The notes: generated by a model not told the origin, from the sequence alone. DNA of 64,000 nt from Candidatus Poribacteria bacterium (GCA_965208675.1 OZ242351.1:2944001-3008000); one strand, 5' to 3'; positions 10,296 to 19,026 are shown, counted from the stretch's first letter. Numbers and translations: made by a program.

Positions 10296-11567
10296 CTAAC
10301 CTGCAATCAACCGGCGGATGCGTTCGTCAAGTGCTTTTTGATCGGTAGCAAACGAGGCGAGTCCGGCGAGGTTCAAGAGCGTGTCGATCGCAAGTCCACC
10401 TGACTTGACGCGCTCTTCCCAGATTTCATGCTTCGGTATCTTGCCATCGGAAGCGATTTTGTCAAGATCTGCCATGGATAATCTAGGAAACAAATCGCCG
10501 GCACCCATGTCATGCGCCTGTATCACCAACTCTTCCGCCGTCTGAGGCGTATCGGTCGTAATACTTTCAACTAGCCTACGCTCTGATTCTGCAACTTCCC
10601 ACAACGTATGTAGACGCAAATCCGATGCACTGACCTCGTCGTTGAGACGTATCGGATAATCGCTGTCAACTTTGTAGTCCCACTCCCCTGAAAGTTCCTT
10701 TTTGGCAGCAGCAGCAACCTTTACGGGCATCGTGATAACATCAATTCCTGCCAAATCCGCAAGCTGCCCAGCTCCTCGCAAGCTCGCGGCGATTTGTTGC
10801 GTCGGTACTTGAGTACCCTGAGCCAGGTCATTAACGGCTCGTTGGCTCGCAAGTGCAGATTTTTCACCAACCAACCGTCCGTCCCCCAATTGATTGTCAA
10901 CCATGTAAGCATTTAGCCGACCAAGAAACACGTTTACGTACGAAGGCGCGCCAAATGCTGTTGCTATGAAGTTATGCCGCGCACTGAACCCCAAAGTGAA
11001 ATTAACCGGTACGCCTGTTTCTCGTAAACGGCGCGTAGCAATTAGGCCCGCTGGCGTCAGCGGTATTTTGATGATAAAGGCGTCGGGGCAAATATTATAA
11101 TACCGGTGACCATACGATACGCTTCTCTCGATGTCGTGAGCCAAATCCGTATGTAGCTCGACGCTCACTTTGCCGCCGAATCGTTGTGCTAGACGAAGTC
11201 CATGATGGGCATTTAAGACAAACGCAATCTCGATAATTTGTGTCCGCGTATCCAACCCAGAAAGCGTACCGGCAGCTTTCTGAATCAAATCATCGTATAT
11301 ACCCTTTTGCACCTCGGCGTTAAGCAACGTGTTGTTCGTCGTTAGCGCCGTGAATTCGTCGGTCCAAAGCGGTGTTGCTCCGTCAATATCACCTGTGTCA
11401 AGCCAAAGTTCAGTGCCAATGTCACACAACGCGCTCCAAAATGGATCTGATTCGGTGTCAAGACGTTCGCCATGTATATCAGCACCATCCTTTACAAAAT
11501 CGTGGATTGGGTCAACGATATTCACAGCAGGTTCCACCGGCTGCGTTAGTGTGTTTTCGCTAGACAT
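10296..11567 (-). CDS. Transaldolase family protein
   Basis: LWLDTG, LTTNN, VSVE, IKIP (Schiff-base Lys), VNFTLGFS and AASLR motifs. Confidence 0.8.
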   Translation of the reverse strand: MSSENTLTQPVEPAVNIVDPIHDFVKDGADIHGERLDTESDPFWSALCDIGTELWLDTGDIDGATPLWTDEFTALTTNNTLLNAEVQKGIYDDLIQKAAGTLSGLDTRTQIIEIAFVLNAHHGLRLAQRFGGKVSVELHTDLAHDIERSVSYGHRYYNICPDAFIIKIPLTPAGLIATRRLRETGVPVNFTLGFSARHNFIATAFGAPSYVNVFLGRLNAYMVDNQLGDGRLVGEKSALASQRAVNDLAQGTQVPTQQIAASLRGAGQLADLAGIDVITMPVKVAAAAKKELSGEWDYKVDSDYPIRLNDEVSASDLRLHTLWEVAESERRLVESITTDTPQTAEELVIQAHDMGAGDLFPRLSMADLDKIASDGKIPKHEIWEERVKSGGLAIDTLLNLAGLASFATDQKALDERIRRLIAG

Positions 11568-11914
11568 GATCACTCCTTCCAAAATAGAATGTACGAGATG
11601 TAGAAAAAGGGACGCGGAGGGATGTTGCCCGTCCTCATAAAACCCACGGCTGAATAGATTTCGGTCAAGATAGACCCTGTTCCGAAATGGTTGGGGCTAA
11701 AAGATGATAGGTTTGCGATGGTAAATTATACCATTTCTGATAGGAAACTTCCCATAAAATCGATATTATATCCGGTTGAACCTCTCAAAAGAATGGCTAG
11801 GGAAGATAAAGAACATGCGCGAGCAAAAAGATTTTTACGCTCCACTTGCCTCCTGAAACGCATGTGGTGTCTTAGGTGGGCTTACATGCTAATTGATTAT
11901 TCGCATTCCATCAA

Positions 11915-13054
11915 CTAACTGCTGTCAGTTACTTTATTCTGAAAAGCTTCCGCTGCACGAGTATCTTGGCTATCCATTTTCAGTGGTGATTTAAGCGTGC
12001 CGGAATCGCCGCTGCCGCGTATCACCACTGCAGGCTCAACCGCTCTTAGCTGAACTTGATCGTCGACCTTAAACGGACAGCGGTGGTCGGTCTGAACAAT
12101 GTAACCCTGTTCTCCGATTTTGACACGGTAGGTCAAATCATGCCCCTTAAACTCGCGCATCGCAATTTTACCTCGCAAACCATTCGGGTGGACCTCATTG
12201 CAACGCTCAATAGTAAGATGTTCTGGACGAATCGAAAGCAGCACCTTCCCTTCCGCATGGCAATCGAGTGGAAGTCTGCCGAGCGGAGTATCGGCGCAAT
12301 CCCCCTTGGCTTCGCCGGAAATCAGGTTCGTCTTACCAAGAAACTCTGCCACGAACGGCGTTTGGGGACAGTGATAGATTGATTCGGGCGTCCCGATTTG
12401 TTCAATCTGTCCGTTTTGCATTACAGCGATCCGATTGGCCAAACAGAGCGCTTCCTCTTGGTCGTGTGTGACCAACACTGCGCTCATCCCAGTCTTTTTC
12501 AACAACTCCCGCACCTCTTCGCGGGTAGTATGGCGCAACTCAGCATCAAGGTTAGAAAAAGGTTCGTCCAACAGAATTAACCGCGGACCTGGAGCAATTG
12601 ACCGAGCCAATGCGACACGTTGTTGCTCTCCCCCCGAAAGCTCATGAGGTTTCCTGTCTTTGATGGAAATCAGGTCGACCAACTCCATCACCTCTAAACA
12701 TCGCTCGCGAAGCAATTTAGAGGTCAGTTTCCTGAGCCCAAATCCGACATTATCCATGACGCTGAGATGCGGAAAAAGGGCGTAGTCCTGAAAGACAAAT
12801 CCGATCCCCCGTGTATTCGCTGACAGGTGTACTTCCGTGCTTACAAGAAGCCGATCTTCCAGATAAATCTCGCCTGCATCAGGGTGCTCAAAGCCTGCAA
12901 TCACTCGTAAGGTCGTTGTCTTCCCGCAACCGCTCGGTCCCAAAAGCGCGAAAATTTCGCCGGCGTAAACATCAAAACTCACCTGTACCACTACAGGCCC
13001 AAGGTGAGGAGCAAGTTGCTTGGTAAGATTTCGCACACTAAGCAGGGGTTTCAT
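11915..13054 (-). CDS. fbpC: Fe3+ ABC transporter ATP-binding subunit (FbpC-like)
   Basis: GPSGCGKT, FQDYALFPH, LSGGEQQR and LLDEPF motifs, TOBE domain; start taken at MKPLL. Confidence 0.9.
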   Translation of the reverse strand: MKPLLSVRNLTKQLAPHLGPVVVQVSFDVYAGEIFALLGPSGCGKTTTLRVIAGFEHPDAGEIYLEDRLLVSTEVHLSANTRGIGFVFQDYALFPHLSVMDNVGFGLRKLTSKLLRERCLEVMELVDLISIKDRKPHELSGGEQQRVALARSIAPGPRLILLDEPFSNLDAELRHTTREEVRELLKKTGMSAVLVTHDQEEALCLANRIAVMQNGQIEQIGTPESIYHCPQTPFVAEFLGKTNLISGEAKGDCADTPLGRLPLDCHAEGKVLLSIRPEHLTIERCNEVHPNGLRGKIAMREFKGHDLTYRVKIGEQGYIVQTDHRCPFKVDDQVQLRAVEPAVVIRGSGDSGTLKSPLKMDSQDTRAAEAFQNKVTDSS

Positions 13055-14615
13055 GGGAAATCCTTTCCTGGACAAGCAGAAGTCCCACAAACAGTGCCGA
13101 GAATAGCAGAATCGCCAGCGCATACGGCGCCGCTTTCGCAAATTCAACTTCGTTTGTGTAACTCCAGACGTTTACCGCCAACGTCTCGTACCCCGCGGGA
13201 GAGAGCAAGACCGTGAGATGAAGTTCTTTCATGGCAGAGAGAAAAACTAAAGCCGTACTCGCCGTAAGCCCGCCGCGTAAATGCGGAAACGTCGCCTTGA
13301 AAAACGCCCGCAGAGGCGTATAGCCAAGGGACTTAGCTGCCTCCTCCAATCGAGGCGGCGCCTGATAGAGCGCACCTCGGACGGGCCCAATAGATTCAGC
13401 GAGGAAGTGCAATGTGTAGGCAAAAACCAAGACCCAAAGCGTCTGATAAATACCGGATAGTGGTAGCGTGAAGAAGATGAGCGCAAGAGCAAGTGCCACG
13501 GGCGGCGTCGCGTAACCCAAATATGCCACACGTTCTAGGAGTCGGGAGAGGAACGTGGGGTAACGCACGCCCAAATATGCGAGCGGCACCGCGAAACAAG
13601 TGGAGAGAAGCGCAGCGGGAGCGGAAGCAAAGACTGATCCAGAGAGCGCCTCGTACAGGGATTGAATATTTGAAGGTACATTTTCCTTCAGCATCCAGAA
13701 ACAGATTGTGACAGTCGGTAGAATTACGCTTGCGGATGCTAAAACGCCAAGGAAAATGTATGCAGGCCCCTGCCAAGCACCAAGCGGAATTAACGGCACT
13801 TTTCGTGGCGGACCGCTTCCCGTGCGGTGAAGTTTAGCGCCGCGCAACAGTTTAGCCTCTATGGCGATGAAGACGCCGGCAAGTGCGAGAAGCATCAATG
13901 CCAGCCAAGCCGCGTAGGTGCGGTCGAAGGACTGCCTTTGCGAGTAAAGCGCGTAACTATAGGTTTCGTAGCCCATCAATGAAACCACGCCAAAATCTCC
14001 GAGAACGTGCAGCCCGACGATTAGCCCGCCAGCGTAAAGCGTCGGGCGAAGTTGCGGCATAACCACATATCGGGAAACTTCCCATGTCCTGTATCCCAAA
14101 CTTTGCGCAGATTCTTCAAGCGCGGCGTCAAGTCCCAACAACGCTGAACGTATATTCATGAAAAGATATGGAAACGTGCAGAAACTTAGTGCAATGAGCG
14201 CACCCCAAAAACCGCTAAGACGCGGTAACCTAAACCCGAATAGACTCGCTACAACTCCATCGGGTCCGCTCAGTCCCAACAGTGTGTACGCCATTACGTA
14301 ACCCGGAATCGCCAGCGGCAATACACCCAACAAGGTAAAAATCCGGTTGCCTCTGAGTTCCGCGCGGGTGGTGAGCCACGCAAGAGGCGTTGCCAATAAC
14401 CCGCCGACGGCAAGGACCCCAGCGGCAAGGAGAAATGTATTCACAAAGAGGTACAGATTTCTCGCGCGGAAGACTATCTGAGTGAGATCGGCTGCTTCTG
14501 CTTGGAAGGCTCGGACGAGCAGGTAAGCCAACGGCAAGAGAACCCCTGTTCCTACCGCAATCGCAGGAAGCGTTAAGTACCAGGGAGAAAGTTGGCGCGC
14601 GAGAAGAATTCTCAT
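13038..14615 (-). CDS. fbpB: Fe3+ ABC transporter permease (FbpB-like)
   Basis: Duplicated TM domains with LEESAQSLG and LEEAAKSLG EAA motifs. Confidence 0.9.
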   Translation of the reverse strand: MRILLARQLSPWYLTLPAIAVGTGVLLPLAYLLVRAFQAEAADLTQIVFRARNLYLFVNTFLLAAGVLAVGGLLATPLAWLTTRAELRGNRIFTLLGVLPLAIPGYVMAYTLLGLSGPDGVVASLFGFRLPRLSGFWGALIALSFCTFPYLFMNIRSALLGLDAALEESAQSLGYRTWEVSRYVVMPQLRPTLYAGGLIVGLHVLGDFGVVSLMGYETYSYALYSQRQSFDRTYAAWLALMLLALAGVFIAIEAKLLRGAKLHRTGSGPPRKVPLIPLGAWQGPAYIFLGVLASASVILPTVTICFWMLKENVPSNIQSLYEALSGSVFASAPAALLSTCFAVPLAYLGVRYPTFLSRLLERVAYLGYATPPVALALALIFFTLPLSGIYQTLWVLVFAYTLHFLAESIGPVRGALYQAPPRLEEAAKSLGYTPLRAFFKATFPHLRGGLTASTALVFLSAMKELHLTVLLSPAGYETLAVNVWSYTNEVEFAKAAPYALAILLFSALFVGLLLVQERISHETPA

Positions 14616-15610
14616 AGCAGACCGACCTTCCTCAATAGTTTCAGCGTACCATCCAGATCGTCTAAATCCTCTAGGTTTAGCGCTGGTATCTGATTGAGAA
14701 GGTCGTCCAGAGACAGCAGTTGGGCGTTGGGAATCACCTTATCCGTAACCGGGTACTCGAAGACTTCGCTCGTAAAGAACTGCTGTGCTTTGATGGATAT
14801 TAAAAACTCGATGAAAGCCAACGCTTCTTCAGACCGCTTACTGCTCTTCAGTAGCGCAATGCCAGCCACGTTGACTAGATTTCCCGCGTCGCCGGCTTTG
14901 AAGAAGGTCTGATCGACCGGGAACTTTGCATTGCCCTTTTTGAAGCGCAAGAGATAGTAGTGGTTTGGCAATCCTAAATCAATCTCTCCAGCGGCAAGCG
15001 CCTGGATAATCGGGGTGTTCTTCGCATAATTTTTGGTTTTGTTTTCCCTCATAGCTCGCAGCCAGCTCTCGGTTTTCTTCTCGCCTTCCAAAACTCGCAT
15101 TGCGGTTACGAAAGCTTGGAACGATGCGTTCTGTGGCGCCCAACCGATTCGGCCCTTCCACATGGGATGGGTGAGGTCAAATATACTATCGGGTAACGCT
15201 TTCGGGTTGACGCGTTCCGGCGAGTAGGCAAGAACGCGCGCTCGGCCGCTGGTTGCAACCCACGTGCCGTCAACGTTTCGAAAGCGTTCTGGAGATTCGG
15301 ATAAAATCCTGTCGGGCAATCGGCTGAAGATATTTTGCTTGCTCAACGCACCCAGTGCGCCGGCATCCTGAGCCCAAAACAGATCTGACGGGCTCTTTGC
15401 GCCCTCTTCCAGTATAGCAACCGCCAACTGGGCGGTGTCGCCGTATCGAACTTTGACTTCTGTACCGTTCTCCTTCTCAAACTGTTTAATGATTGGCTCG
15501 ACTAGACTTTTGCTTCTCCCGGAATACATCACCAATTCCTTGGCATCTGTTGTTCCGAATATTGTTGCACTTAAAAGTAAACCTAAAATTCCAGCGGAAT
15601 ATCTCAACAT
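14612..15610 (-). CDS. fbpA: Fe3+ ABC transporter substrate-binding protein (FbpA/FutA-like)
   Basis: Signal peptide; YSGR, SPSDLFWAQDAG, SGRARV and NHYY (iron-ligand tyrosines); GGAGA RBS. Confidence 0.9.
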   Translation of the reverse strand: MLRYSAGILGLLLSATIFGTTDAKELVMYSGRSKSLVEPIIKQFEKENGTEVKVRYGDTAQLAVAILEEGAKSPSDLFWAQDAGALGALSKQNIFSRLPDRILSESPERFRNVDGTWVATSGRARVLAYSPERVNPKALPDSIFDLTHPMWKGRIGWAPQNASFQAFVTAMRVLEGEKKTESWLRAMRENKTKNYAKNTPIIQALAAGEIDLGLPNHYYLLRFKKGNAKFPVDQTFFKAGDAGNLVNVAGIALLKSSKRSEEALAFIEFLISIKAQQFFTSEVFEYPVTDKVIPNAQLLSLDDLLNQIPALNLEDLDDLDGTLKLLRKVGLL

Positions 15611-15671
15611 TGTAATCTCCCGTTGCTGTAATATTGGATTCAAGGCGCAAAGGGATTTATAGCTTCCCCAC

Positions 15672-15701
15672 TTGACATCTAGAACCACGCTCAACTATAC
15701 T
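15672..15701 (+). promoter_or_regulatory. sigma70-like promoter of bfr
   Basis: TTGACA-N18-TATACT, 70 nt upstream of the bfr ATG. Confidence 0.6.
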
Positions 15702-15770
15702 ATTATGTGTGTACTCAAATTTGAACGGTTCTCATAAAGGCTAACACTTCCAAGCGTAAAGGAGAAAACA

Positions 15771-16250
15771 ATGGACGGCCATCCCGAAATCATCGAAGTA
15801 CTTAACGAAGTATTAACATCCGAACTAACTGCAATCAATCAATATTTTGCCCACTCCGAAATTTGTGAAAATTGGCAATACCATCATCTCCACCAAGCTA
15901 TTCGTGAGCATGCGATCGGAGAAATGAGGCACGCCGAAAAACTTATCGCGCGGATTCTGTATCTCAACGGAATGCCTAACATGATGCGGTATTTTGAGAT
16001 TAGGATTGGCACGACTGTCGAAGAAATGATGGATAACGACCTTGACCTTGAGAAAGAAGCTGTTGAGCGGCTGAATGAATTCATTGAACTCGCTATTACC
16101 CACAAAGACGCCGGTTCACGAGAACTTCTAGAGGAGATTCTCAAAGATGAGGAAGACCACGTCGACTGGATTGAAGCCCAGTTAGATCAGATTAACCAAA
16201 TGGGAATCCAAAACTACCTTGCACAACAGGTTGGCACCGACGAAGCTTAA
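15771..16250 (+). CDS. bfr: Bacterioferritin
   Basis: ELTAINQYFAH, EMRHA (heme Met), LEKEA, EEDHVDWIE and IQNYL motifs; AAGGAG RBS. Confidence 0.96.
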   Translation: MDGHPEIIEVLNEVLTSELTAINQYFAHSEICENWQYHHLHQAIREHAIGEMRHAEKLIARILYLNGMPNMMRYFEIRIGTTVEEMMDNDLDLEKEAVERLNEFIELAITHKDAGSRELLEEILKDEEDHVDWIEAQLDQINQMGIQNYLAQQVGTDEA

Positions 16251-16397
16251 CCAGCTCCGCTCCAAACAGTAGCAAGTCGCTTACCCCAAGGTAACAGCAG
16301 GATCACTCTTGAACGAGTTGCCGGGCGCACCCATTACCTTCCAACCCAAACCACCGAATTGACTTTCGCCCTCGCTTTGAAAAAGTTGCCAAAATAT

Positions 16398-16416
16398 GAT
16401 AATGAGACTCAGTTTC
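16398..16416. promoter_or_regulatory. Fur box-like operator
   Basis: GATAATGAGACTCAGTTTC matches the E. coli Fur consensus GATAATGATAATCATTATC at 15/19 positions. Confidence 0.65.
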
Positions 16417-16435
16417 ACTTGCTCGCCAAGTCGTA

Positions 16436-16465
16436 ATTATAGCACTTACATCAATTGCATGTCAA
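16436..16465 (-). promoter_or_regulatory. Consensus sigma70 promoter firing antisense to bfr
   Basis: Minus strand TTGACA-N18-TATAAT with extended TGn (TTGACAtgcaattgatgtaagTGcTATAAT). Confidence 0.65.
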
Positions 16466-16511
16466 AGATTTTTGAACCGCCTCATTCAAGAACGGAATAC
16501 TCCGCTTGAAT

Positions 16512-16544
16512 AGAAACGAGTTTTTCGCAAAAAACCTGGTTGCT
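16512..16544. repeat. GAAACC-type imperfect palindromic repeat
   Basis: agaaacgagtttttcgcaaaaaacctggttgct; related copy at 38477-38510. Confidence 0.4.
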
Positions 16545-16609
16545 GTTGCACAATCACAATTTTGTGTCGGTGCTCGCCGCATAAATCGCTTGCCGTATCC
16601 TGAATGCAC

Positions 16610-17197
16610 TCAGTTTTTTCCAACATTCCCACCGAATTTGATGTTAGACCGCTCTGCTGCAGCAGCAACCTCACGCACAATTCTCATGGTTAATTCGGCT
16701 AAGTTCTGTGCGAACATTTGACTCCCGTTATTCGATTCTGCAACCTCGCGGTAGCGGGTGCCGCTACGTAACGTTGTCAACCGATGATTCGCAATGCCGA
16801 GTGCGCTCGCAACTAGTTCGGTGGGCACATGAAGCGTATCCGTCGAAGGTGTTACACCTGTTGTCAGTTCAACTTGTGTGTTGGCTTCAGAAGATTGCGC
16901 CGCTATTTGCTCACCATCAAGGGGATTCCCCGCCAAAAAAGCTTCTTGGCGGGACTCAATAACCTCAATAACCTGTTCGGCCGCCGCTTGTTCCGCAAGT
17001 CGCTTTGAGCCGGAAATCGGCGCAGGAGTAATGTAACTAGATTGTCCGTACTTAACGGTTACAATCCAGCTAGGCGAGTCCGGTTTTCCCTGTTGTCTAG
17101 ATTCGTACAACGGTTCTCCAAGGTTCCTCGTATGACAGAGTTGTTGAAGCACCCCTTTGTAATTCTGAATTTCACTCTGAGTTGTCATCTCTGACAT
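16610..17197 (-). CDS. Stand-alone double-stranded RNA-binding domain protein
   Basis: N-terminal NYKGVLQQLC...PLYE...G...W.VTV...GSKRLAEQAAAE dsRBD signature; no RNase III catalytic motif. Confidence 0.75.
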   Translation of the reverse strand: MSEMTTQSEIQNYKGVLQQLCHTRNLGEPLYESRQQGKPDSPSWIVTVKYGQSSYITPAPISGSKRLAEQAAAEQVIEVIESRQEAFLAGNPLDGEQIAAQSSEANTQVELTTGVTPSTDTLHVPTELVASALGIANHRLTTLRSGTRYREVAESNNGSQMFAQNLAELTMRIVREVAAAAERSNIKFGGNVGKN

Positions 17198-17300
17198 ATG
17201 AATCTCCCAATTAAATCTGAAAAGGCGATGAAAAGGTGTTTTACTATAGATAGTGGCTCTTAATCGACATAGATTGCGATTAGCGTAAATATGTTAGTGC

Positions 17301-18938
17301 TTAAACCGGCTCATATCTCAACATCGGTTCATTGCGGCGAACCACGAGGTGTTTTCGCCAATTTGTGTCATCTCTTTCGGAGTAGTCCTCCCGATAATGC
17401 CCGCCGCGGCTTTCGGTACGCGCTATAGCTATGCGTGTTATCAACCTCGCTACTTCAAGCATATTCTGCAACTCAAGTGCTTCAATTTGATTTCCCGATA
17501 TCGACTGATCCAATGGTGCTAACGCATCGGCAACTTTCTTCAGGTCTCCGCCATTTCTGAGTATACCGGCGTGTCTCCACATTAGCTCTCGGATCATTTC
17601 TTGGGCAGTGTTGATATCAACGGACGGATTGGATGTGTCATTGAATTTATCGCTGCTGGATTCTGATTCGTCATTCGACTGAATCCGAACACTCGCGTGC
17701 ACTTGTGTGTCCAATTTTCCCGCGTATTTAGCCGCGGCTTTTCCCGCACGTGTGCCAAAAACTATACACTCAAGCAATGAATTACTTGCGAGCCGATTCG
17801 CGCCATGGACCCCTGTGCACGCAACCTCACCACAGGCGGTAAGGCCGCGAATGCCCGTCTCGGCATTCATATTGGTTCGAACACCGCCCATCATGAAATG
17901 TGCTCCAGGTCGAACCGGGATTAAATCCGTGGTAATGTCAATACCGTACTGATTGCACGTATGGTAGATTGTCGGGAAGCGGTTCTGTATGAAATTCGGC
18001 GATAGGTGTGTGATATCCAAGTAGACGCAGGGTGAATCTGTCAATTCCATTTCACTAAGGTTGGCGCGGCTCACCACATCTCGTGGCGCAAGTTCTTCCA
18101 ATTCGTGGTATTTGCCCATAAACCGTTCGCCGCGCCCGCTGATTAAGGTTCCGCCCTCGCCCCGCAAGGCTTCGGAGATTAAGAAATGGGGGGCTCCCAT
18201 CAGGAACAACGTAGTAGGATGAAATTGGACAAATTCCATGTCCATCATTTCACAACCCGCCCGCCAAGCCAGGGCGAAACCGTCGCCCGTTGCGACTTCT
18301 GGGTTCGACGTGCATTGATAGATTCGCCCAAGCCCACCTGCTGCGAGGATTGTGGCTTTGGCAAAGATGCAGTGCAGGGTGCTATCAATGAGGGCGGCCA
18401 CTCCGTAGCAGGTGTTGTCCTGTGTCATGAAATCAACCGCGAAGGCGTGCTCAATAACTTGTATCCGTTTTTGTTTCTTGAGATGCGTGACTAAAACCTG
18501 CGTGGTTTCTGCGCCAGTAGCATCGCCTCGGTGAACTATACGCCGGCGTTGATGCGCCGCTTCTTGCGTGAAACCGAGCGTTTCACCCTCCTTGTCGAAA
18601 TTTGCGCCCCATTGAATTAGTTCCGATACCCGTTCAATGCCCTCCTCAACCATGATTTGTACAGCAATCTCATTGCAGAGCCCAACTCCCGCTTTAAGCG
18701 TATCTTCGACATGGAACCCGATTTCGTCATCCTCACTCATCGCAACGGCGATGCCGCCTTGTGCATACCGCGTGCTGCTCTCTTGAAGCGCGCCTTTTGT
18801 AATCAACACAACATCCCCGTGGCGATTGGCTTCAATGGCTGCCCTTAATCCAGCGCTGCCGCTTCCGATTACCAAAAAATCGGTGTCGATCCGCGGCAAC
18901 TCCGCAGAATCAAAATTGATGAGATATCGGCGACTCAT
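17301..18938 (-). CDS. nadB: L-aspartate oxidase
   Basis: GSGSAGL, YAQGGIA, EFVQFHPT, ISEALRGEGG, ELAPRDVV, GVHGANRLASNSLLE and ESRGGH motifs. Confidence 0.95.
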   Translation of the reverse strand: MSRRYLINFDSAELPRIDTDFLVIGSGSAGLRAAIEANRHGDVVLITKGALQESSTRYAQGGIAVAMSEDDEIGFHVEDTLKAGVGLCNEIAVQIMVEEGIERVSELIQWGANFDKEGETLGFTQEAAHQRRRIVHRGDATGAETTQVLVTHLKKQKRIQVIEHAFAVDFMTQDNTCYGVAALIDSTLHCIFAKATILAAGGLGRIYQCTSNPEVATGDGFALAWRAGCEMMDMEFVQFHPTTLFLMGAPHFLISEALRGEGGTLISGRGERFMGKYHELEELAPRDVVSRANLSEMELTDSPCVYLDITHLSPNFIQNRFPTIYHTCNQYGIDITTDLIPVRPGAHFMMGGVRTNMNAETGIRGLTACGEVACTGVHGANRLASNSLLECIVFGTRAGKAAAKYAGKLDTQVHASVRIQSNDESESSSDKFNDTSNPSVDINTAQEMIRELMWRHAGILRNGGDLKKVADALAPLDQSISGNQIEALELQNMLEVARLITRIAIARTESRGGHYREDYSERDDTNWRKHLVVRRNEPMLRYEPV

Positions 18939-19026
18939 TTGGCTCTAATGCGATTCGGCAATCGCAAATGACATCCTTTCGAAACAGTTTGCCTAGATTG
19001 TCCAAACGGCGTAAAGTGAACAGTGC

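Follow-up and report, generated by a model that had tools for sequence, protein, structure and literature searches.

How might a bacterium couple iron storage to iron uptake when the storage gene lies on the opposite strand from the uptake genes beside it? The question is raised by a locus of a Candidatus Poribacteria bacterium, analysed here in a window of 64,000 nucleotides (the whole stretch of DNA under analysis, OZ242351.1:2944001-3008000 of GCA_965208675.1; positions are counted from its first letter). The bacterioferritin gene bfr is the sole plus-strand gene within a run of minus-strand genes (around 11915-17197) that includes the ferric-iron-uptake genes fbpABC. In the convergent gap past the 3' end of bfr lies a minus-strand promoter with a palindromic Fur-type operator, and this promoter is aimed antisense through bfr at fbpABC. 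That the promoter and the operator are real and iron-linked is held with high confidence, antisense transcription into bfr is likely, and the chances are about even that one transcript, repressed by Fur, both crosses bfr in antisense and extends further as the mRNA of fbpABC. The elements on which the argument turns are the following.

16460-16465, minus strand: -35 hexamer TTGACA, invariant in 4/4 genomes of the genus
16436-16444, minus strand: extended -10 element TGcTATAAT, its TATAAT invariant in 4/4 genomes of the genus
16397-16417, no strand assigned: palindromic Fur-type operator of 21 bp, TGAAACTGAGTCTCATTATCA in the minus-strand reading, at about +13 to +33 from the predicted start
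16251-16396, minus strand: non-coding first stretch of the predicted transcript, from the operator to the bfr stop codon, G-rich and C-poor (C/G 0.36-0.75)
15771-16250, plus strand: bfr, bacterioferritin of 159 aa (Pfam Ferritin, 4.7e-36)
15672-15701, plus strand: bfr's own promoter, TTGACA-N18-TATACT, 11/12, without an operator, conserved in the genus
15611-15770, no strand assigned: divergent bfr-fbpA intergenic region of 160 nt, without an operator and without an fbpA-directed promoter above 8/12
14612-15610, minus strand: fbpA, periplasmic ferric-iron-binding protein, with a GGAG ribosome site and an ATG at 15610
13038-14615, minus strand: fbpB-like permease with two BPD_transp_1 stretches (Pfam)
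11915-13147, minus strand: fbpC-like ABC ATPase with a TOBE_2 domain, its listed TTG start overlapping the permease gene

The first-pass annotation had placed a minus-strand TTGACA-N18-(TGn)TATAAT promoter and a 15/19 Fur box in this gap, and both are present. The promoter (16465-16436, with 18 nt between the -35 and the -10) scores 12/12 with the TG and is the sole 12/12 among six promoter-like sites in 11500-17500. Perfect TTGACA-N16-18-TATAAT matches occur at 70 sites genome-wide against about 1.75 expected under equal base use, an approximately 40-fold excess, and because of this excess the match at 16465-16436 is very probably a working promoter; the usual spacing would put the transcript start near 16429. 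The box at 16398-16416, which was scored by hand against the E. coli consensus, is the core of the 21-bp inverted repeat at 16397-16417. The genome, a single contig of 4.89 Mb whose closest relatives are titled Candidatus Poribacteria metagenome-assembled genomes, was scanned for the palindrome and then with a weight matrix built from 51 distinct sites from Poribacterial loci, this genome's own sites included. The operator scores 32.6 bits, second best in the genome; only five sites reach at least 25 bits (34.3, 32.6, 28.2, 26.5 and 25.0), and the next scores 15.4.

The four other strong sites all lie within one 14-kb island. Two of them precede an operon that encodes imelysin-like, imelysin, NUDIX, di-haem oxidoreductase, Rieske ferredoxin and heme-degrading-type ABM proteins, the oxidoreductase and Rieske genes being adjacent, and the remaining two stand one ahead of each of two TonB-dependent receptor genes, one of which is followed by HmuY. 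Additionally, metagenome contigs were scanned for a perfect promoter with TGAGTCTCA, which gave 103 stretches, and 80 loci were examined. None of the 80 has a bfr, fbpA or Rieske gene nearby (tblastn, E<=1e-5), so the scan, which yielded no further bfr loci, was of use solely in identifying the operator. The same promoter-plus-box layout was found ahead of FeoA genes at two loci and 35 nt ahead of FUR-family open reading frames (ORFs) at four. At these four loci (L189, L211, L225 and L241) the ORFs are 128 aa long (two Pfam-checked, two judged from the translated ORF only) and follow the 21-bp box and a perfect promoter, pointing to an autoregulated fur with the same operator in another uncultured lineage. 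Judged by the genes that it precedes (iron-acquisition genes, FUR-family ORFs and FeoA genes), the box is a real operator of an iron regulon. A Fur homolog, on which the first-pass annotation had made its reading depend, was found as well: the genome has two PF01475 matches above cut-off, a 185-aa protein that best matches Fur models and a 165-aa protein that best matches Zur, all below the equivalog cut-offs. The operator is most likely bound by the Fur-like 185-aa protein.

Conservation of the arrangement downstream of bfr, which the first-pass annotation had proposed as a check, was found in three families. The three other genomes of the genus (g1) have the same gene order, with hexamers and box core invariant and flanks diverged, so that the promoter and box are present in 4/4 genomes, the operator being conserved in all four. 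In a close strain (two DNA runs), the stretch 16251-16516 has six substitutions and one insertion, none of them in the hexamers or the box. Beyond the genus, all 39 bfr-bearing genomes among 121 sampled in the order were compared, a conserved layout being a near-consensus promoter (10-12/12) followed by a box and reading into the bfr 3' end. It occurs in 10/10 genomes of g11, which belongs to another family and carries two boxes, and in 2/2 genomes of g12, from a third family, where the box directly follows the -10. Across g1, g11 and g12 the bfr stop lies between 126 and 472 nt from the -35 hexamer, an approximately fourfold spread.

A different arrangement is seen in the sister clade (g5, g4 and g3; 22 loci), where no box was found on the 3' side of bfr. 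A minus-strand gene of at least 270 aa ends close after the bfr stop in 21/22 loci (at 11-17 nt in those loci where it is the di-haem oxidoreductase gene), and a Rieske-sized gene (136-143 aa) on the same strand as the converging gene lies beyond bfr in 22/22. The identities of these flanking genes were Pfam-checked in G066 and G017. In all seven genomes with long flanks the converging gene is part of an imelysin/di-haem oxidoreductase operon headed by two boxes; three genomes (G006, G005 and G024) have an additional 271-287-aa gene between the oxidoreductase gene and bfr, and in G007 a plus-strand ORF intervenes between the operon and bfr. By gene order, bfr of the sister clade thus lies on the opposite strand within an operon under box control, among its last genes, with the di-haem oxidoreductase gene on one side and the Rieske gene on the other.

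The control of fbpA bears on which gene the convergent promoter serves. The first-pass annotation had named fbpABC as the first substantial minus-strand genes past bfr, and the identities hold, with the fbpA start corrected from 15611 to 15610. The bfr product passes the bacterioferritin model TIGR00754 (182.8 bits against a cut-off of 125.55), the best solved relative of FbpA is a ferric-iron-binding protein (PDB 7w3w, E 2.6e-110), and the true start of the fbpC-like ATPase is probably near 13040. Neither bfr nor fbpA has any iron-linked element nearby apart from the convergent promoter. The annotation had also seen no comparable promoter directly before fbpA, and the search agrees: the best operator score in 15611-15770 is -5.9 bits, and the best fbpA-directed promoter there, TTCAAA-N17-TAGTAT, scores 8/12, which is at chance level (a score of at least 8 was reached by 712/2000 random 160-nt pieces).

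Orthologues of fbpA were found in 57/61 sampled genomes, and 30 loci were examined. In 17/17 genomes of the sister genus g5, in which fbpA is not beside bfr, fbpA has a box of its own 49-65 nt before its start; it also has one in 2/3 g8 genomes (at -77 and -320) and a perfect one in both g12 genomes, and none was found in the single g4 genome. In 4/4 g1 loci (-807 to -887) and in 5/5 g11 loci examined (-1334 to -1460), fbpA has no upstream box other than that on the far side of bfr. One apparent box before fbpA in g11 (L050:694) lies within the fbpA coding sequence and was dropped. The g5 fbpA promoters read TCTTTGACA-N17-TATAATTA-N14-TGAAACTGAATCTCAATATCA, and the convergent promoter in the same notation reads TCTTTGACA-N18-TATAATTA-N18-TGAAACTGAGTCTCATTATCA. 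The shared layout and several shared words suggest a common origin; the likeness is one of layout and words only, ungapped identity being uninformative because the spacings differ.

It is proposed that, when iron is replete, a Fur-type repressor on 16397-16417 would silence the sigma-70 promoter at 16465-16436. When iron is scarce the promoter would fire and polymerase would enter the 3' end of bfr on the minus strand, giving a transcript antisense to the entire bfr gene that would also cross bfr's own promoter. Bacterioferritin synthesis would be lowered through polymerase collision or promoter occlusion and/or pairing with the bfr mRNA. The transcript would most probably go on as the fbpABC mRNA, a continuation that is favoured because fbpABC has neither an operator nor a good promoter of its own. 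Storage would then be turned down and uptake turned up by one and the same iron-controlled transcript, which is the layout of an excludon. The first-pass annotation had proposed such a single starvation transcript; the promoter, the iron operator, the regulator and the layout support it in part, and the span as far as fbpA is one that we infer. This reading is favoured over a short small RNA because the unit is kept in three families and because fbpA has its own copy of the layout wherever it is not behind bfr.

Several points weigh against it. The leader ahead of fbpA would be about 820 nt long and untranslated. Rho is encoded in the genome and the bfr-antisense part is C-rich and G-poor around 16091-15990 (C/G up to 2.29), so that transcription may stop within bfr. 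Promoters of low score evidently function in this clade (the bfr promoters of most g5 genomes score only 5-7/12), for which reason the 8/12 site leaves a separate fbpA promoter possible. The convergent promoter does not need fbpA, since g12 keeps it with fbpA elsewhere and under its own box. G053, a g11 genome, has dispersed palindromes between the promoter and bfr that, if they terminate, would block read-through in that genome. The convergent promoter and box were not found in the one g9 genome (0/1), where a box-preceded TonB receptor gene faces bfr over a 545-nt gap and ABM, fbpA and permease genes lie past bfr, sharing the strand of the receptor gene. Searches for the RNase III catalytic domain (PF14622, PF00636 and TIGR02191) found none in the genome, a result to be read as not found and not as absent because they also missed some control genomes; RNase III processing belongs to the published excludon mechanism, according to the part of the source available (PMC12288877), and this usual double-strand RNA processing step may be missing. 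No RNA sequencing run containing 15400-16800 was found, and the four runs examined at the locus, DNA contigs only, gave strain variants and no transcript ends.

The best-surviving alternative is that the transcript silences bfr and ends in or just past it, for example through Rho, and that fbpABC is expressed from a weak promoter of its own in 15611-15770 that is not under this operator. The g12 arrangement, Rho with the C-rich stretch and the working of weak promoters all fit it, as does the conservation of TTCAAA-N17-TAGTAT in 4/4 genus members. Against these stand the chance-level score of that site and two further points: within the f1 family sample, no other fbpA would lack iron control, bar that of the one g4 genome, and a co-directional Rieske gene without a good promoter always comes after bfr in g11, g12 and g5. 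An antisense transcript that stops short of fbpABC is considered possible though rather unlikely.

A second alternative, raised in the first-pass annotation, is a short Fur-repressed small RNA of the RyhB/PrrF kind, about 170-190 nt long, that would end before or at the bfr stop and pair with iron-protein mRNAs elsewhere. A Fur-boxed orphan promoter in an intergenic gap is what RyhB-type genes have, and close to the bfr stop there is a small hairpin at 16262-16277, with UGUUUGG after it, that is retained within the genus with changes on both sides; the helix that spans the stop codon is a separate one (alignment columns 251-255 and 275-279). The RNA itself does not behave as expected of such a molecule. 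The minus strand of 16250-16429 has no terminator-like site at which a discrete short transcript would end, and the annotation's statement that no clear terminator separates the promoter from fbpA is correct, as none was found on that strand from 16429 to 15611. This absence is a weak point, because canonical terminators are barely enriched after genes in the genome (hairpin-plus-T sites follow 142/2629 long ORFs and lie inside 99/2629), a count that suggests that the organism seldom uses them. The 199-nt RNA from 16429 folds at -55.5 kcal/mol against -59.2 +/- 4.2 kcal/mol for shuffles (z +0.89), with 163/200 shuffles folding at least as well, and compensatory change is seen in only 2/38 consensus pairs (four sequences). 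The body of the RNA can be aligned within the genus only, and there with an indel of 58-67 nt (G001 and G003 carry the insertion); outside the box region it has no similarity to its g11 and g12 counterparts, large indels occur even within g11, and no seed or structure is conserved across genera. The single Rfam match obtained at E<=1 in 11000-19000 is to P36 (18859-18917) and is at chance level. The position beside bfr is conserved and the sequence is not, and the distance from promoter to bfr is as variable as noted above. A RyhB-like small RNA at bfr is unlikely, because the body is neither conserved between genera nor structured and has no terminator; comparative genomics disfavours this alternative, which we regard as improbable, and the transcript across bfr into fbpABC is preferred to it on the same grounds and because the unit is kept in three families. 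A separate idea, that the box followed by UAUUUUGG forms an attenuator, was rejected as the U-run is missing in G001 and G003.

The weakest alternative, that the promoter is a relic of a former fbpA promoter cut off by the insertion of bfr and now yielding a functionless transcript, or that it serves a small protein such as the 17-codon ORF at 16281-16334, agrees with the layout of the proximal g5 fbpA promoters and is nevertheless very improbable, as neither the hexamers nor the box vary in 4/4 genus members, in contrast to the diverging flanks, three families retain the unit, and the ORF, which exists as the first-pass annotation had listed it, has ATA in place of its ATG in G003 and is disrupted by the insertion after it in G001 and G003.

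Excludons are long antisense RNAs that double as the mRNA of a neighbouring divergent operon, in Listeria monocytogenes and other bacteria, and were reportedly treated by Sesto et al. in 2013. The present locus has the same plan: bfr on the plus strand and fbpABC on the minus strand are divergent neighbours with opposed roles (storage versus uptake), and a promoter beyond one of them points antisense through it at the other. It differs from the described cases in that it is known from sequence alone, in that control would be by a metal-sensing repressor, in that the layout is kept across families of a candidate phylum, and in the RNase III domain that was not found. RyhB, PrrF and NrrF are small RNAs, repressed by Fur, through which the expression of bfr and ftn falls in iron starvation, and the activation of storage genes by Fur is mostly explained through trans-acting small RNAs such as RyhB and PrrF. 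In both designs Fur repression of an RNA yields an iron-dependent 'positive' control of storage genes; those RNAs act in trans through short seeds and have terminators, whereas the RNA here would act in cis by full overlap and has no conserved body or terminator. If the reading is correct, a Fur-controlled bfr antisense RNA that is also an uptake mRNA would be a simpler, cis-acting solution.

The nearest cases in print, in the parts of these sources available, are general excludon work (PMC12288877) and a rise of antisense RNA over bfrB in Cupriavidus metallidurans, in which metal starvation took the sense signal from 315 to 110 and the antisense signal from 157 to 681 (PMC11647595). As proposed here, antisense RNA over a bacterioferritin gene rises as the sense RNA falls in metal shortage; that organism is unrelated, and the available text of the study describes no promoter, Fur box or uptake-operon link for the bfrB antisense RNA. 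In enterohaemorrhagic E. coli, a Fur-dependent antisense transcript of ler is described in the portion available of another report (PMC4090186). The likeness is that an iron-responsive antisense transcript controls the gene on the opposite strand, and the difference is that the target is a virulence regulator, not iron storage. To our knowledge, no downstream mRNA function is known for the ler antisense transcript. Nothing was found in the literature, including the part of PMC3516471 available, on a Fur-controlled antisense RNA or excludon on a bacterioferritin gene or on Fur boxes in Poribacteria. With the present sites, Poribacteria would gain their first operator motif, together with a predicted iron regulon that is compact. 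The phylum is a candidate phylum without genetics, and the promoter, operator and gene pair are defined enough to be rebuilt in a laboratory host.

The contexts of bfr differ among these genomes: it may follow an orphan promoter and precede fbpABC or Rieske-fbpABC, be placed in the imelysin operon between the di-haem oxidoreductase gene and the Rieske gene, or face a TonB receptor gene. We tentatively suggest, with somewhat less than even confidence, that bfr has been retained across Poribacteria as a solitary gene on the opposite strand within iron-acquisition units repressed by Fur. Its antisense placement may have been selected as a switch between storage and uptake that would need no small RNA and would work by transcriptional interference, in a lineage whose only double-strand-RNA-binding domain stands alone and in which searches for an RNase III catalytic domain found none.

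Two further features lie beyond the promoter.

16610-17197, minus strand: protein of 195 aa with a double-strand-RNA-binding motif (Pfam dsrm)
16508-16554, minus strand: palindrome GAAACCGAGTTTTT..AAAAACTCGGTTTC, a dispersed element and degenerate here, located between the double-strand-RNA-binding gene and the promoter

The 195-aa protein, in which nothing but this motif is recognisable, is the only dsrm match in the genome, and its gene occurs once per genome in 61/61 genomes of the order; the protein may represent, in Poribacteria, a free-standing remnant of RNase III or a replacement for it. As a partner of the promoter the gene was rejected, since it lies beside bfr only in g1, and its adjacency to the promoter is probably due to chance. 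An aspartate-oxidase-like flavoprotein gene on the minus strand is also among the genes around bfr. The stretch 16508-16554 matched many places in genomes of the sister genus, and this copy of the palindrome is a possible insulator or terminator of the upstream gene. The GAAACCGAGTTTTT..AAAAACTCGGTTTC element is REP-like (repetitive extragenic palindrome) and lies in intergenic regions around bfr, with full copies at other loci (L028 and L057) and two copies in the antisense leader of G053.

In g5, g11 and g12 the divergent neighbour of bfr is always the gene for a small Rieske ferredoxin (139-143 aa). In this genome (L023:8115-8899) the ferredoxin is encoded in the box-controlled operon and is followed by the HmuQ/IsdG-type ABM protein. 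From its position, it could be a functional counterpart of bacterioferritin-associated ferredoxin.

Lastly, the Fur-type box is separated from the TonB-dependent receptor genes (one with HmuY) by a conserved leader some 117 nt long, at L023:9083-9242 and L023:16989-17106 (genome 2573083-2573242 and 2580989-2581106) and also, for example, at L034:251-368 on the minus strand. Its nested helices are ACAGAAA.GGC/GCC.TTTCTGT, CGATAG/CTATCG and GGGA.AGCT/AGCT..TCCC, together with a UGGGGC-U6-GCGCCCA hairpin. No Rfam match was obtained for it at E<=0.1. The consensus fold has an energy of -32.6 kcal/mol, with compensatory change in 3/33 pairs (11 sequences), and the element is a candidate riboswitch or leader.

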